Positions 2,766 to 43,540 of a stretch of DNA of 64,000 nt are shown here, one piece after another. Every line of letters begins with the position of its first letter. Position 1 is the stretch's first letter. Source of the DNA: Thermodesulfobacteriota bacterium (lineage in GTDB: Bacteria > Desulfobacterota > Desulfobulbia > Desulfobulbales > SURF-16). Position numbers and translations under genes: made by a program. The notes beneath the pieces were generated by a model. The model was not told where the DNA came from. It worked only from the letters and a program-made list of their open reading frames with translations, and did not search any database. The DNA lies in contig JBFMAY010000001.1 of NCBI GenBank assembly GCA_040755455.1, positions 135,896-199,895 of the forward strand, in the 5' to 3' direction.

Positions 2766-4121
2766 TTACCCCTTAGTGCTCTGGTGTCGATTTTTGCCGT
2801 CCCTCCCTGGGTTGCGCTGGCATATTTTCAGCATGCATGCCGCTGCGCCGGCAAGCAGTGCCAGTCCCGCCAGGCAGCCGGCCTGATAGAGCTGGGGATT
2901 CAGTGACAGAGCCTCCTGCTCCCCGCCGTCGGTAAAGACCTGGGGATTGCTGCTGATCAGCCAGGCCGAACGGATGAAAACAGCCACGAGCACCGTCAGC
3001 CAGGCGGCCATTGCCGTGAGAGAAAGCAGGCGGCTTGCCGGCGCAAGCAGCAGCGAGCGCAGGTGATACTGAACAAGCTGCGGCGCTGTTGCCTCGCCCG
3101 TGCCTGCGGTCAGCTGCATAAACAGCGCTTGCTGCGCCGCTCCCTGCCGCATGGCGAAGGCGAGTTTCACGGCAAGGGCCACGAGCAGAAAGGGAAAGAG
3201 TTTGATGAGATCAGTCAGCCGGAGCGGGAGAGGGCCGAAAGGCGACTCGATGGCTTTGAGCCGGTCAGACAGGAGCGTGATCCTGGCCCTGGTGTCAGCG
3301 ATACTCCTGGTTAAGCCGGCAAGCTGCTCTTCCTGGCTGCGGCGCTGCCGGTTGGTTTCCTCAAGCAGCTCGCGGACCCTGTTTTCCAAGGGGGCGAAGG
3401 ACGACTCGATGTTGTCACGGATACCGGCGGCCACGTCCACCTTGCCGCCACTTCCCCCATAGGAATGCCAGAAGTCGGGATCAATGGCGGCGATATTTTT
3501 TTTCACCGCGTCTACCGCGTTTTTACATATCTCATTCAGATCCTTTGCCCCATTGGTGCCGGCGCTGTCGAGTGCACTCACCGGCCTCACCACCCTTGTC
3601 TCCAGTTCGGCGAGCAATTCGGCAAACCGGTTACTGACATACCAGTTGACCGCTGCGGCAAAACTGGTGATTTCCGCCGGCAAAGTGATGGTGCTCCCCG
3701 GCAGTTCCTGCTGCATGTACTGCTGCTGGGCATACTGGCCGTATTGCGGGATATCGGGGGTATGAGGGAATTGACCGGCCAAGGGGTTGTCCCGCAGGTC
3801 GAGGGCTCTCTGGAGATCAGGAAGCGCGCCCCGCAGCTGATCCGGGAACTGGCGAAGGTCCTCGCGTATTTCCTGCAGGGCTGCAGCGGCAGACTGCTTC
3901 GCCTCGTTTATTTTTGCCGCCTCCTGCGAAAGAACATTGATGGACTGGGCCATGGCGGGCAGGGAGTTCTGCAGGGACTGTTCCCTGATTTTGAGCTGGA
4001 AGTAGGGCTCTACCACATAAAAATGGGCGGCAAGGGCAAAAAAGAGACCGACCAGGAAAAGCCGGTTGATCTCCTTGATGCTGGACCGGTAATCATTGAG
4101 AATAACGTCGGAATCTGCCAT
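2766..4121 (-). CDS. Hypothetical membrane protein with a long coiled-coil/Gln-rich central region
   Basis: SD GGGGAGAGGG sits directly 5' of ATG 4121, 10 nt after the upstream stop. There is an N-terminal TM ('LFLVGLFFALAAHFYVV') and several C-terminal hydrophobic helices. I recognise no catalytic motif. Confidence 0.7.
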   Translation of the reverse strand: MADSDVILNDYRSSIKEINRLFLVGLFFALAAHFYVVEPYFQLKIREQSLQNSLPAMAQSINVLSQEAAKINEAKQSAAAALQEIREDLRQFPDQLRGALPDLQRALDLRDNPLAGQFPHTPDIPQYGQYAQQQYMQQELPGSTITLPAEITSFAAAVNWYVSNRFAELLAELETRVVRPVSALDSAGTNGAKDLNEICKNAVDAVKKNIAAIDPDFWHSYGGSGGKVDVAAGIRDNIESSFAPLENRVRELLEETNRQRRSQEEQLAGLTRSIADTRARITLLSDRLKAIESPFGPLPLRLTDLIKLFPFLLVALAVKLAFAMRQGAAQQALFMQLTAGTGEATAPQLVQYHLRSLLLAPASRLLSLTAMAAWLTVLVAVFIRSAWLISSNPQVFTDGGEQEALSLNPQLYQAGCLAGLALLAGAAACMLKICQRNPGRDGKNRHQSTKG

Positions 4122-16306: not shown

Positions 16307-17236
16307 CTACCGCCTTTTCAGGGCTGAAAAGGCGCCATGGTCGGCCATGATCTTCTCCGCCGCCGGGCTGTAAAGAAAATCGATAAAGTTTTTCACCTGC
16401 CGGCCCGGCTCGTCTTTCCATACCAGACCGAGCGGGATAACGAGCCGGTAGGCCCCCTGTGTCACGTTTTCCCGGTTCGGGGAAAGCTGGTCAAGCTGCA
16501 GCACAACAATGTTCGGCTGGTTTTCGGCCTCGGCCAGGCACGAGTAGCCGATGGTGTATTTGTATCTGTTGATCGCGGCGATGTTTTCCGGCGTGGTGTA
16601 GAGGATCTGTCCCACCGGTTTGTCGATGCCGTTGAATGCCGGTATGTGCTTTTCGATAATGGTGCGGGATGAATCCCCCTTTTCCCGGTTGGCCACGTAA
16701 ATTTTTTCAGGGGGCCCGCCCAGTTCGCTCCAGCGGGTGATGGCGCCTGAAAAGATGCCGGCCGCCTGCTGCCCGGTGATGCTGGTGACACCCGTCACGC
16801 TGCTGTTGACCAGGAAAACCACCGGTGAATCGGCAAAAAGCAGGTAGGAAAGGTTGAGTGCCTTCTCCTGTTCCTTCAACGGACGGGCCACCCGGCCCAG
16901 GTCACATTTGCCGGCTGCCGTGGCTTTGATGCCGCCGCTGCTTCCGATGGAGTCCTGCACGTCAATGCTTACGTCCGGATGGGACTGTTCATAGCTGGCG
17001 GCCAGATGACGCAGCAGATTCTGGCTGTCGCCGGAGCCGCAGATGATGATTGTCTGTTTGGCCGGATTGGGGGAAACCGTCTGCACTGTTTGTTCAGGAT
17101 TGCTGTCCGCCTGCAGTGCCGTGACGGGGCGGTCCTCTGCGTAATTTGCGGCGCTGCCGTAATGAGCGGCCGCACTGTTGATTGCGGTGCCCAGCAAGAG
17201 GAGCAGACCGGCCACAGGTAGCAATGTCTTTTTCAT
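16307..17236 (-). CDS. PstS-family (PBP_like_2) periplasmic substrate-binding protein
   Basis: Signal peptide 'MKKTLLPVAGLLLLLGTAINSAAA' with GGAG 10 nt upstream of ATG 17236. 'GSSGGIKATAAGKCDLG' and 'IFSGAITRWSELGG' are typical PstS-like motifs. Confidence 0.8.
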   Translation of the reverse strand: MKKTLLPVAGLLLLLGTAINSAAAHYGSAANYAEDRPVTALQADSNPEQTVQTVSPNPAKQTIIICGSGDSQNLLRHLAASYEQSHPDVSIDVQDSIGSSGGIKATAAGKCDLGRVARPLKEQEKALNLSYLLFADSPVVFLVNSSVTGVTSITGQQAAGIFSGAITRWSELGGPPEKIYVANREKGDSSRTIIEKHIPAFNGIDKPVGQILYTTPENIAAINRYKYTIGYSCLAEAENQPNIVVLQLDQLSPNRENVTQGAYRLVIPLGLVWKDEPGRQVKNFIDFLYSPAAEKIMADHGAFSALKRR

Positions 17237-17400
17237 GCTGATATTTCTCCGCTGGTGTGCTGAAGGGAAAATGGCTGACCAGCTATTCAATAACAAAGGC
17301 TATGTTTTTGTCAAGTAGGAGTGCAGAGGCGCATGGCCACCGGCAGGTTGTCATGCAAGAGATAAGATGGCCCATGCAGGCAAAATGTTTCACTTTAACT

Positions 17401-17460
17401 GGCATAAGGGGCCGCAACGAAATGGTCAGCAGGGTAATGGTTATTTCGTAACAACCCCTT
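17401..17460 (+). repeat. Copy A of a ~58-nt intergenic hairpin repeat (consensus GGCATAAGGGGCCGYAACGAAATG-N~19-GGTTATTTCGYAAC..CCC)
   Basis: Aligns by eye to 42687-42744 and 42788-42845. Both arms are conserved and the loop varies. It lies in the divergent region upstream of the CHASE kinase gene. Confidence 0.7.
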
Positions 17461-17505
17461 TGATCGTGTTCCGGAAAAAATCGACAATGTTTTCCGGTTT
17501 ATGAT

Positions 17506-22113
<4,608 letters not shown>

Positions 22114-41684: not shown

Positions 41685-42653
41685 ATGACGCCATACAGAC
41701 CTCTGACCATAATCAGTCATCCGCATTACCTGGAGCATGATACAGGAGGCGGAGACCATCCGGAAAGCCCTGAACGTCTACGATTCATTGATAGGCAGCT
41801 CAAGGACAGCCCCCTTTCCCCCTGCATCACTAAAAAAACCGCCAGAAGAGCGCTGCGGGAGGATGTCCTCGTCTATCACACGGAGGCCTATCTGTACCGC
41901 CTGGAAGAAACCGCCCTGAAAGGACAGACCTATATTGACCACCGGGACAATCAGATCTGTTTCGAGTCCTTTGAGGCGATTCTGCTTGCGGCCGGGGGCT
42001 GCCTGACCGGCATCGATCTGCTGGAAGAGGGCAGCGATCTGGTTTTCTGCTGCATACGGCCTCCGGGCCACCATGCGGAACGGGCCATGGCCCTGGGTTT
42101 CTGTTTCGTCAATAATGCGGTTGTCGCCGCCAGGTACTGGCAGAAACGGTATGGACGACAAAAAATTGCCGTCATCGACTGGGACGCCCATCACGGCAAC
42201 GGCATCCAGGATGCCTTTGAGGAAGACCCTGATGTTTTTTACATCAGCATCCATGAGCATCCCACTTTCAGCTTTCCGGGCACCGGCTATGCCGAGGAAA
42301 AAGGCCTGGGGGCAGGGGCCGGCACCACCCTGAATATTCCCCTGCCGCCCGGGGCCGATGACGCCATGTTTCTCCGCGCTATGAGCAAATTCGTGGAGCC
42401 GGCCCTGGACGTCTTCCGGCCGGAGAGGATTATCGTTTCCGCCGGATTTGACGGGCATGTGCTGGATGACATGTCAGGACTGTCCTACAGCACGGAGCTT
42501 TACGGCGTGATCGGCGAGCGGATGGCGGCACTGACCGACAGGTATTGCCAGGGGAAAAGCCTGTCGATCCTGGAAGGCGGCTATCATCTGGAAGCCCTGG
42601 CCGCCAGCGTTGAACGTTACCTCCTTGGCCTGGCCAAGTGTAAGCCGTTGTAA
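41685..42653 (+). CDS. Histone deacetylase-family (AcuC/HDAC-like) deacetylase
   Basis: 'IRPPGHHA', 'VIDWDAHHGNGIQ' and 'LEGGY' are the arginase/deacetylase-fold catalytic motifs. Confidence 0.9.
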   Translation: MTPYRPLTIISHPHYLEHDTGGGDHPESPERLRFIDRQLKDSPLSPCITKKTARRALREDVLVYHTEAYLYRLEETALKGQTYIDHRDNQICFESFEAILLAAGGCLTGIDLLEEGSDLVFCCIRPPGHHAERAMALGFCFVNNAVVAARYWQKRYGRQKIAVIDWDAHHGNGIQDAFEEDPDVFYISIHEHPTFSFPGTGYAEEKGLGAGAGTTLNIPLPPGADDAMFLRAMSKFVEPALDVFRPERIIVSAGFDGHVLDDMSGLSYSTELYGVIGERMAALTDRYCQGKSLSILEGGYHLEALAASVERYLLGLAKCKPL

Positions 42654-42686
42654 AAAAATAACTGTAACATCGCCATTACGGTGAAC

Positions 42687-42744
42687 GGCATAACGGGCCG
42701 TAACGAAATGGTCAGAGATGTAATGGTTATTGCAACGGCCCCTA
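42687..42744 (+). repeat. Copy B of the ~58-nt intergenic hairpin repeat
   Basis: GGCATAACGGGCCGTAACGAAATGGTCAG...GGTTATTGCAACGGCCCCT. The arms GGGCCGTAACGAAAT and ATTGCAACGGCCC are imperfectly complementary. Confidence 0.7.
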
Positions 42745-42787
42745 ACCCGATATAAAAAAACAATATCGTCGTCCCGATGTCAGAGAC

Positions 42788-42845
42788 GGCATAAGGGGCC
42801 GTAACGAAATGCTCAAAAAAGAAGAGGTTATTTCGCAACGGCCCT
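42788..42845 (+). repeat. Copy C of the ~58-nt intergenic hairpin repeat
   Basis: GGCATAAGGGGCCGTAACGAAATGCTCA...GGTTATTTCGCAACGGCCCT forms a 14-bp stem with a 2-nt internal mismatch. It ends 5 nt before the AAAGGAG SD of the next gene. Confidence 0.7.
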
Positions 42846-42862
42846 AAATAAAGGAGTGGAAA

Positions 42863-43540
42863 ATGTATATAGCACGCCATATGACCTCACCGGCGCTGAC
42901 TGTTTCCCCGGACACCCTGCTGCCGGATGTCCGTGAAATCATGAATACCCGCAGGTTCAGGCACCTGCCGGTGGTCGATGAGCAGCAGCGGTTGATCGGT
43001 ATGATCACCGACCGGGATCTGCGTTCCGCCTATCCCTCCTCGCTGCTGCCCGAGGACAAGCGGCTGGCTATCCTGGAGAAGGTGGCCAAGACCGAGGTCA
43101 GGTCCATCATGTCCCAGAAGATCATTGCCATTACCCCGCTTTCCACCCTGGATGATGCCCTCTATTTCCTGTCCAAGGAAAAAATCGGCATGCTGCCGGT
43201 GGTTGATGAGGAACAGCATGTTATCGGCGTCTTTTCCGTCCATGACCTCATGATGGCCTATAAAAAACTCTATGGCATCGGCGATCGCGGTTCCGCACTG
43301 ATTGCCGTGGAGGATGACGGCAAGCCGAAACCTCTGACCAGAATCGTCCGGGTGCTGGAGGAGCGGGAAATCCGCTTTTCCCGCCTGACCAGGGTCCATG
43401 GCGAGGCCGGGGAAAAGAAGATCATCTATCTGCGCGTCCATACCTTCAACCTCAATGTGGTGCATAAGGCGCTGAAAGAAATCGGCATGACCATGATGGT
43501 TCCCGATCTGCAGGAAATTCTGCCAAAGCCCCATGCCTGA
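42863..43540 (+). CDS. CBS-pair + ACT-like domain protein (AcuB-like)
   Basis: Two CBS motifs ('HLPVVDEQQRLIGMITDRDL', 'MLPVVDEEQHVIGVFSVHDL') are followed by a ~70-aa ACT-like C-terminus. SD AAAGGAG lies upstream. Confidence 0.85.
   Translation: MYIARHMTSPALTVSPDTLLPDVREIMNTRRFRHLPVVDEQQRLIGMITDRDLRSAYPSSLLPEDKRLAILEKVAKTEVRSIMSQKIIAITPLSTLDDALYFLSKEKIGMLPVVDEEQHVIGVFSVHDLMMAYKKLYGIGDRGSALIAVEDDGKPKPLTRIVRVLEEREIRFSRLTRVHGEAGEKKIIYLRVHTFNLNVVHKALKEIGMTMMVPDLQEILPKPHA

Follow-up and report, generated by a model that had tools for sequence, protein, structure and literature searches.

A ~105-nt, probably MITE-like element with TAA flanks, present twice between a deacetylase gene and a CBS-domain gene and dispersed in other genomes

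The window analysed here, meaning the whole 64,000-nt stretch of DNA, carries an acuC/acuB-like pair on its plus strand, namely a Hist_deacetyl gene and a CBS-domain gene, followed by an AcetylCoA_hydro-GNAT gene (Pfam assignments). The CBS protein is 100% identical to a protein of a Thermodesulfobacteriota MAG. A 209-nt spacer separates the two genes of the pair and holds copies B and C of a repeated unit, and a third copy, A, sits between divergent PBP_like_2 and CHASE kinase genes (Pfam). The main features are as follows.

41685 to 42653, plus strand: Hist_deacetyl gene (Pfam E = 7e-89), with its last three codons and stop (42651-42653) derived from copy B
42863 to 43540, plus strand: CBS-domain gene (Pfam), with the Shine-Dalgarno (SD) sequence AAGGAG at 42851-42856
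42641 to 42745, plus strand: copy B, a full-length ~105-nt element, TAA GCCGTTG ... CAACGGCCCC TAA (nhmmer E = 3.6e-26, profile positions 3-110)
42743 to 42847, plus strand: copy C, a full-length element of a subfamily other than that of B (nhmmer E = 3.2e-20, profile positions 6-108)
17388 to 17459, plus strand: copy A, partial and decayed (nhmmer E = 5.5e-16, matching profile positions 36-107 only)

The insert reaches into one gene and stops just short of the other. The deacetylase ends in ...LAKCKPL*, with its stop inside copy B, versus ...LAKLSVKE* in relatives, and the SD of the CBS gene begins 7 nt past the last stem base (42844) and 3 nt past the end of copy C. A 23-nt core pattern, GGCATAAGGGGCCGTAACGAAAT, searched with up to three mismatches, matches only at 17401, 42687 and 42788, always on the plus strand, and found nothing in 100 shuffles; a window-wide nhmmer profile search returned no copies beyond A, B and C. 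These three align over ~60 nt, copy B aligns with 47 other representatives, and the subfamily of copy C is also found at locus L062 near 3921. The sequence-only reading had taken B and C for a tandem pair of a ~58-nt hairpin repeat filling most of the spacer. Their starts are indeed 101 nt apart, and the pair, lying head to tail with one TAA (42743-42745) common to both, covers 207 of the 209 spacer bases; the 58 nt, however, are only the right-hand part of a unit that alignment of the copies extends to ~105 nt. Copy A has lost its left ~35 nt, the GG of its outer stem has become AA, and its right TAA has turned into TTT. Just downstream of copy A, a sigma-70-like promoter match with TG (TCGACA-18-TATGAT, window 17481-17510) extends over the ATG at which the CHASE kinase ORF is annotated to start (17506), so the true start codon may lie further downstream. 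Within the full-length copies, the following parts can be delimited.

42657 to 42671, plus strand: outer-left arm of copy B, AATAACTGTAACATC, forming helix H1 with GATGTAATGGTTATT (42717-42731) and lying within the long imperfect terminal inverted repeat
42694 to 42709, plus strand: inner left inverted repeat of copy B, CGGGCCGTAACGAAAT, the 5' arm of the hairpin first described
42729 to 42742, plus strand: right terminal inverted repeat of copy B, ATT--GCAACGGCCCC, with a 2-nt deletion, the 3' arm of that hairpin
42795 to 42810, plus strand: inner left inverted repeat of copy C, GGGGCCGTAACGAAAT
42830 to 42844, plus strand: right terminal inverted repeat of copy C, ATTTCGCAACGGCCC

Alignment of the matches found in other genomes places the beginning of the conserved block 44-45 nt upstream of the repeat first described. 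The unit runs for ~105 nt from TAAGCCGTYGT to AACGGCCCCTAA, and information content drops to zero right outside both ends, TAAGCCG... and ...GGCCCCTAA; the consensus of the commonest subfamily is TAAGCCGTCGTCAAACAATAACCGTTACGCAGAAATACCTTTCCGGCATAAGGGGCCGTAACGAAATGGTGAAAAATGTAACGGTTATTTCGTAACGGCCCCTAA. The element contains three copies of one end motif of ~19 nt.

Outer left, degenerate: TAA GCCGTYGTnAAAnAATAAC
Inner left: TAA GGGGCCGTAACGAAAT
Right, inverted: ATTTCGTAACGGCCCC TAA

In the outer repeat TAAGCCGTCGTCAAACAATAACCGTTAC stands against GTAACGGTTATTTCGTAACGGCCCCTAA, and the inner-left and right repeats are identical at 17 of 19 positions; the hairpin of the sequence-only reading is the inner-left and right inverted repeats pairing together. 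This stem, H3, shows a single Watson-Crick type at each position and an invariant central A.A mismatch across 48 representatives (<93% identity), in a comparison where the search pattern dictated the 5' arm and left the 3' arm free. The mismatch results from the presence of GTAAC on the same strand in both arms. A single pair type everywhere means that the arms are conserved as sequence and not as pairing, and on this pattern of conservation they act like protein-binding ends, not like an RNA stem. In helix H1 (AATAAC... with ...GTTATT), only the inner pairs vary among the 48 representatives, with three to four Watson-Crick types (for example at L031, L020 and L057), and the variable positions belong to the long inverted repeat. 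An additional pairing suggested for copy B, CCATTAC (42673-42679) with GTAATGG (42720-42726), is present in the sequence, but what pairs with the loop of B family-wide is AATAACTGTAACATC with GATGTAATGGTTATT instead.

The unit is smaller than ~300 bp, has no coding capacity, and is intergenic in all but 4 of ~119 cases among the matches listed, the four exceptions overlapping only crude ORF calls. Truncated, internally deleted and tandem copies occur among the matches listed, as is expected of a decaying transposon family. Head-to-tail arrays comprise three units at L038 (2700-3040), where every junction shares one TAA, and two units at L101, L115 and L057 and in the window. A variant hairpin at L113 (3465-3545), GGCATAAG AGGCCGTTATAAAAAGAGCAA...TTGCTCTTTTTATAACGGCCTCT AA, keeps GGCATAA, GGCCGT/ACGGCC and TAA and has a different, fully complementary distal stem. 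In addition, some copies from Smithella/Syntrophaceae-like MAGs carry in their loop an extra tiny hairpin, CTTGCCACCC-nnnn-GGGTGG(TTA), seen at L001 (4545-4570), L002, L007, L041, L060 and, twice, L108, which gives the impression of a still smaller repeat family sitting inside the 105-nt one.

A pattern scan of species-representative genomes with GGCATAANGGGCCGNAACGAAAT, which gives a lower bound, finds more than 119 stretches in at least 51 species-level assemblies. Among the matches listed, the hosts are Desulfobulbaceae, Desulfocapsaceae, Desulfurivibrionaceae and other Desulfobacterota, Smithella/Syntrophaceae, two Holophagaceae MAGs and one NC10 MAG. Isolates with the family include Desulfoprunum benzoelyticum DSM 28570, Desulfobulbus sp. 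Tol-SR and Hydrosulfovibrio ferrireducens CB1MN. Copy number within a genome can be considerable: MAG SOY_29_metabat_314 has no fewer than 22 loci and MAG MFD03899.bin.2.95 no fewer than 14. One subfamily comprises at least 41 near-identical copies that differ from their consensus by 1.5 nt on average and have unrelated flanks. The motif strings retrieved unrelated primers only from the searchable literature, and the family is apparently both widespread and undescribed. In Desulfobulbus sp. Tol-SR, another MITE-like repeat with the ends TAACCCTACAACGGCAC...GCGTTGTAGGGTTA lies directly to the left of copies of the 105-nt element (L043 ~2770-2880; L103 ~3130-3240; L008 4930-5040, minus strand), and at L008 this second repeat breaks a truncated ISXO2-like (IS1595 family) transposase ORF.

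Orthologous junctions with and without the element were found in two cases. At three loci whose CBS proteins are 89, 89 and 80% identical to that of the window (L120, L121 and L123), only 3 nt separate the end of the deacetylase gene from the CBS ATG, and the SD lies within the upstream gene. The junction there reads CAG TAA AGGAGTAGACC ATG, with a single TAA, versus 209 nt in the window, where the same junction reads GTG TAA [B] TAA [C] TAA ATAAAGGAG.... L120 belongs to the sample series (Ga0104751) that also yielded the Desulfurivibrio MAG SURF_16, which has the family elsewhere (L062, L065 and L102). The second pair consists of a filled site (L114) and an empty one (L115), with a lone TAA in the empty site and a TAA on each side of the element in the filled one. 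Among the matches listed, 98 copies have both ends recognisable, and their flanking trinucleotide is TAA on the left in 72 and on the right in 88. About one-third of these copies lie exactly on gene stop codons: the left TAA is the in-frame stop of the upstream ORF in 18/98, and in 15/98 a TAG made by the right end stops a convergent ORF. With so many copies next to a stop codon, whether a given site is occupied makes a handy strain or lineage marker.

Composition around the insertions is also uneven. The 64 unique insertion sites (L001-L119) are biased at positions -8 (A/T in 50/64), -7 (T/C in 46/64), +1 (purine in 45/64) and +2 (pyrimidine in 50/64), and this bias may reflect an extended target preference. 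In the 41-copy subfamily, the flank trinucleotides are ~4 times more variable than the element body (L045, L088, L083, L086, L016, L067, L021, L024 and L118 among them), and several copies of this young subfamily have a 9-nt right-end extension, CCCC TGATATGKC TAA. At L122 (2530-3000), beside a CBS protein that is 86% identical, an unrelated 471-nt insert with repeated CCGTCATGCCGGA-like strings occupies the same deacetylase-CBS junction, which marks the junction as an insertion hot spot.

The element inserts at TAA, has TAA on both flanks, behaves as if mobilised in trans (it contains no ORF), and has spread within and between genomes. Its short non-coding unit, its terminal inverted repeats, its many dispersed, near-identical copies with unrelated flanks and its filled and empty orthologous sites are those of a MITE, and B and C are probably two independent insertions, belonging to different subfamilies, of a ~105-bp non-coding and non-autonomous MITE-like element. 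In this lineage the element landed in the TAA inside the stretch where stop codon and SD overlap, in a deacetylase-CBS pair that is tightly coupled. The insertions pushed the two genes 209 nt apart and rewrote the last deacetylase codons, and the CBS ribosome-binding site was spared. A transposase acting in trans would presumably bind the GGGGCCGTWACGAAAT ends and mobilise the element. Effects on expression, such as the loss of translational coupling and a stable mRNA structure in the 209-nt spacer, would plausibly be by-products of insertion and not the purpose of the element.

Our best guess for the enzyme, with the chances roughly even, is a DDE transposase of the IS5 (IS427/IS1031/ISL2) or PIF-Harbinger type, a candidate favoured because such enzymes make 3-bp TAA/TTA duplications. 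The IS5-type assignment is tentative, drawing only on the TAA flanks and on ends that are loosely alike. Two other small elements also bear on the nature of the ends. A metagenome scan for the inner-left arm without the preceding A of GGCA (BTAAGGGGCCGTAACGAAAT) yielded a 164-nt element at no fewer than 10 sites in metagenome Ga0164313, with the form TAA GGGGCCGTAACGAAATAAGTTATC ... GAGTTATTTTGTTACGGTCCC TAA, for example at L135, and a ~200-nt element in a high-GC contig. Their positions are given below.

L135 7640-7806 (minus strand), L133 2574-2737, and L124, L127-L131, L134 and L136: 164-nt element, TAA flanks
L125 2757-2956 (minus strand): ~200-nt element, TAA flanks

The interiors of these two elements are unrelated, and their GGGGCCGTAACGAAAT ends are the same as those of the 105-nt family. 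As one motif terminates two unrelated small elements, the arms are terminal inverted repeats that belong to a family of transposon ends. The occurrence of GGGGCCGTWACGAAAT and TAA in at least three unrelated small elements from different phyla points to a widespread and likely uncatalogued transposase group. No autonomous element with these ends was found in ~1.1 Mb of loci, PLSDB plasmids, phage records and IMG/VR, and a YREK-motif regex over the ORFs in the loci gave no match. Several candidates were discarded. End pairs 600-3000 bp apart that could have bounded a long element were separate small copies or noise, and the pair at L131/L133 was a single genomic region sampled twice. The transposase beside a copy at L008 is no partner but an ISXO2-like remnant, truncated and broken up by another repeat. 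The ORF beside a truncated copy at L105 starts inside that copy and has a signalling-type sequence instead, presumably that of a relative of chemotaxis-type signalling proteins.

An alternative keeps the element mobile and changes the route. It would be a TAA-seeking hairpin with its own terminal TAA, moved by an unrecognised enzyme other than a DDE cut-and-paste transposase, either as a folded single strand (in the manner of IS200/IS605-PATE or REP/REPIN-RAYT, with an HUH enzyme) or as a small circle integrated by a recombinase. It would insert beside a TAA-like target that is not doubled, the right TAA being the element's own. The strand asymmetry of the ends speaks for this route and is a counterpoint to a MITE, as a symmetric double-strand site predicts a perfect inverted repeat, whereas here GTAAC lies on the same strand in both arms and the A.A mismatch is invariant. 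Additionally, the 5' GGCATAA by the hairpin is conserved even in the L113 variant with its other distal stem, units in head-to-tail arrays have one TAA in common, and no DDE partner has been found. The flanks of the young subfamily fit as well. Among the matches listed, they differ from TAA in 8 of 41 copies on each side, left and right never match within a copy, and some variants recur as if inherited (TAT, TAC and AAA twice each, TGA seven times); unmatched and recurrent variants of this kind are unexpected from a fresh 3-bp duplication. If true, this route would explain the mismatch, the same-strand GTAAC, the unmatched flanks and the TAA-sharing arrays, as well as the unusual depth to which the end motif is conserved, spanning no fewer than three or four phyla. 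The sister families, however, have true terminal inverted repeats, GTAAC...GTTAC, and conservation across phyla is unlike REP/RAYT systems. The filled and empty pairs fit a TAA duplication equally, and a HUH...Y motif regex, a weak test run over the ORFs of 80 aa or longer from the loci and the window, matched no Y1/HUH-like or RAYT-like ORF. We regard movement by folded strand or small circle as unlikely.

A second alternative leaves mobility aside and holds that the spacer encodes a cis-acting RNA of the operon transcript, such as a stabilising hairpin, an attenuator or a processing site, kept for that role. Refolding bears out the hairpin of copy C as originally described, at -23.6 kcal/mol (z = -4.7), and none of 200 shuffles was equally stable. 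In favour of a role as RNA, the 226 nt of spacer transcript have a predicted fold of high stability (-71 kcal/mol, z = -5.1), many copies stop a few nucleotides short of an SD, and the inner pairs of H1 covary. The folds of copies A and B on the plus strand are weaker (z = -1.4 and -0.75), and the outer stem of copy A has two C.A mismatches that correspond to G.U on the opposite strand. Against a role as RNA, H3 is invariant and shows no compensatory changes, and counts of wobble against A.C pairs give no consistent strand signal (38 vs 41 in H2, 3 vs 12 in H0), on which ground strand-specific RNA selection was rejected.

Placement relative to genes gives the same picture. The proposed check of strand and position bias showed random orientation among the matches listed, with 35 copies co-oriented with both neighbours and 33 antisense to both, 24 between divergent genes and 15 between convergent ones (crude ORF calls). 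In the same set, what the right end faces is a gene start in 51 cases and a gene end in 49, the counts for the left end are 53 and 47 (Fisher p = 0.89), and the distributions of distance to genes are alike (MWU p = 0.74 and 0.90). Fixed orientation and position, as a cis-regulatory RNA would show, are thus missing. Neighbouring genes at ~115 loci are unrelated, and all-against-all ORF clustering returned generic families only, with none enriched. No terminator-like site occurs in 42400-43000 or 17200-17600; the hairpins lead into TAA, not into a T run. No promoter-like site was found in the deacetylase-CBS spacer, and the search for tRNA and tmRNA gave none. Over the whole window nothing passed the Rfam gathering threshold, and at E <=10 the best hit on two copies was a miRNA hairpin (0.11), with a weak, non-significant likeness to the 3' end of group-II-D1D4-4 (E = 6.3). 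Close relatives, moreover, function with a 3-nt junction. The attenuator or mRNA stabiliser proposed from the sequence finds no backing in these results, and a cis-acting RNA is a very improbable account of the element. That it is a DNA site for a transcription regulator common to the CHASE kinase locus and the deacetylase-CBS operon, another suggestion of that reading, is hardly credible: the sequence is conserved between the two loci of the window, but across many genomes hundreds of copies lie beside genes unrelated to one another, oriented either way and often next to the 3' end of a gene, the operon site is missing in close relatives, and copy A has decayed to a fragment. Group II intron domain V, integron attC and dif/Xer, which strings resembling GCCGTA or GCATAA had suggested, were set aside, as the core motifs (the GNRA-capped 34-nt D5, RYYYAAC/GTTRRRY of attC and the 11-6-11 layout of dif) and cassette arrays were not found.

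Returning to the MITE-like element, its insertion remodels operons, as an acuC/acuB-like pair is split by 209 nt and the C-terminal residues of the deacetylase are replaced. In Desulfobulbaceae, Desulfurivibrio, Smithella and related MAGs, units of ~105 nt are also liable to be wrongly annotated as terminators, small RNAs or regulatory hairpins, and a profile of the family would clear such noise. The transposase group might be traced via longer elements with GGGGCCGTWACGAAAT ends.

Among known systems, the PIF/Harbinger-Tourist elements have ends resembling GGCC..GTT and a TWA duplication. The 105-nt family shares with IS5/PIF-Harbinger MITEs its small, non-coding units, terminal inverted repeats with a G-rich start, TAA/TTA flanks, and dispersed copies with presence/absence polymorphism. 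Unlike them, it has three copies of the end motif rather than two, its flank variants are unmatched, and its ends are kept across several phyla. IS1237, of the IS5 family, has TAA/TTA direct repeats and the inverted repeat GAGGTGGTTTCAG... (PMC2516522), to be compared with the element ends GGGGCCGT...; TAA flanks occur in both. No parent IS for the 105-nt family was found in the loci, plasmids, phages and viral contigs searched.

The family also recalls Correia (CREE, Neisseria), RUP (Streptococcus pneumoniae) and ERIC (enterobacteria), which are intergenic inverted-repeat elements of ~100-150 bp that form long hairpins, occur in both orientations, and often lie in operons and are co-transcribed. 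Each of these three is confined to one genus or one taxonomic family and duplicates TA, and Correia elements are known for promoter and RNase III functions. None of them has sequence similarity to the 105-nt family; their sizes and classes are listed in PMC3184786. With REP/BIME-REPIN sequences the element has in common an extragenic imperfect palindrome, a conserved 5' single-stranded motif (here GGCATAA), a location in operon spacers and, sometimes, arrays. It differs from them in its 105-nt unit with defined ends and TAA flanks, in having no GTAG, and in crossing phyla, REPs being lineage-specific. The REP/BIME-like label that had been offered therefore fits only loosely, as a name for dispersed palindromic repeats outside genes, and not in the REP/RAYT sense. 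Chunjie, a MITE of Geobacter uraniireducens, is 178-235 bp long and A+T rich, with 21-bp terminal inverted repeats and 9-bp direct repeats (PMC3184786, PMC10969869). It resembles our element as a MITE in a deltaproteobacterial-type genome that enters operons without destroying them, and was rejected as its identity because the size and the 9-bp repeats differ, which makes it a different family.
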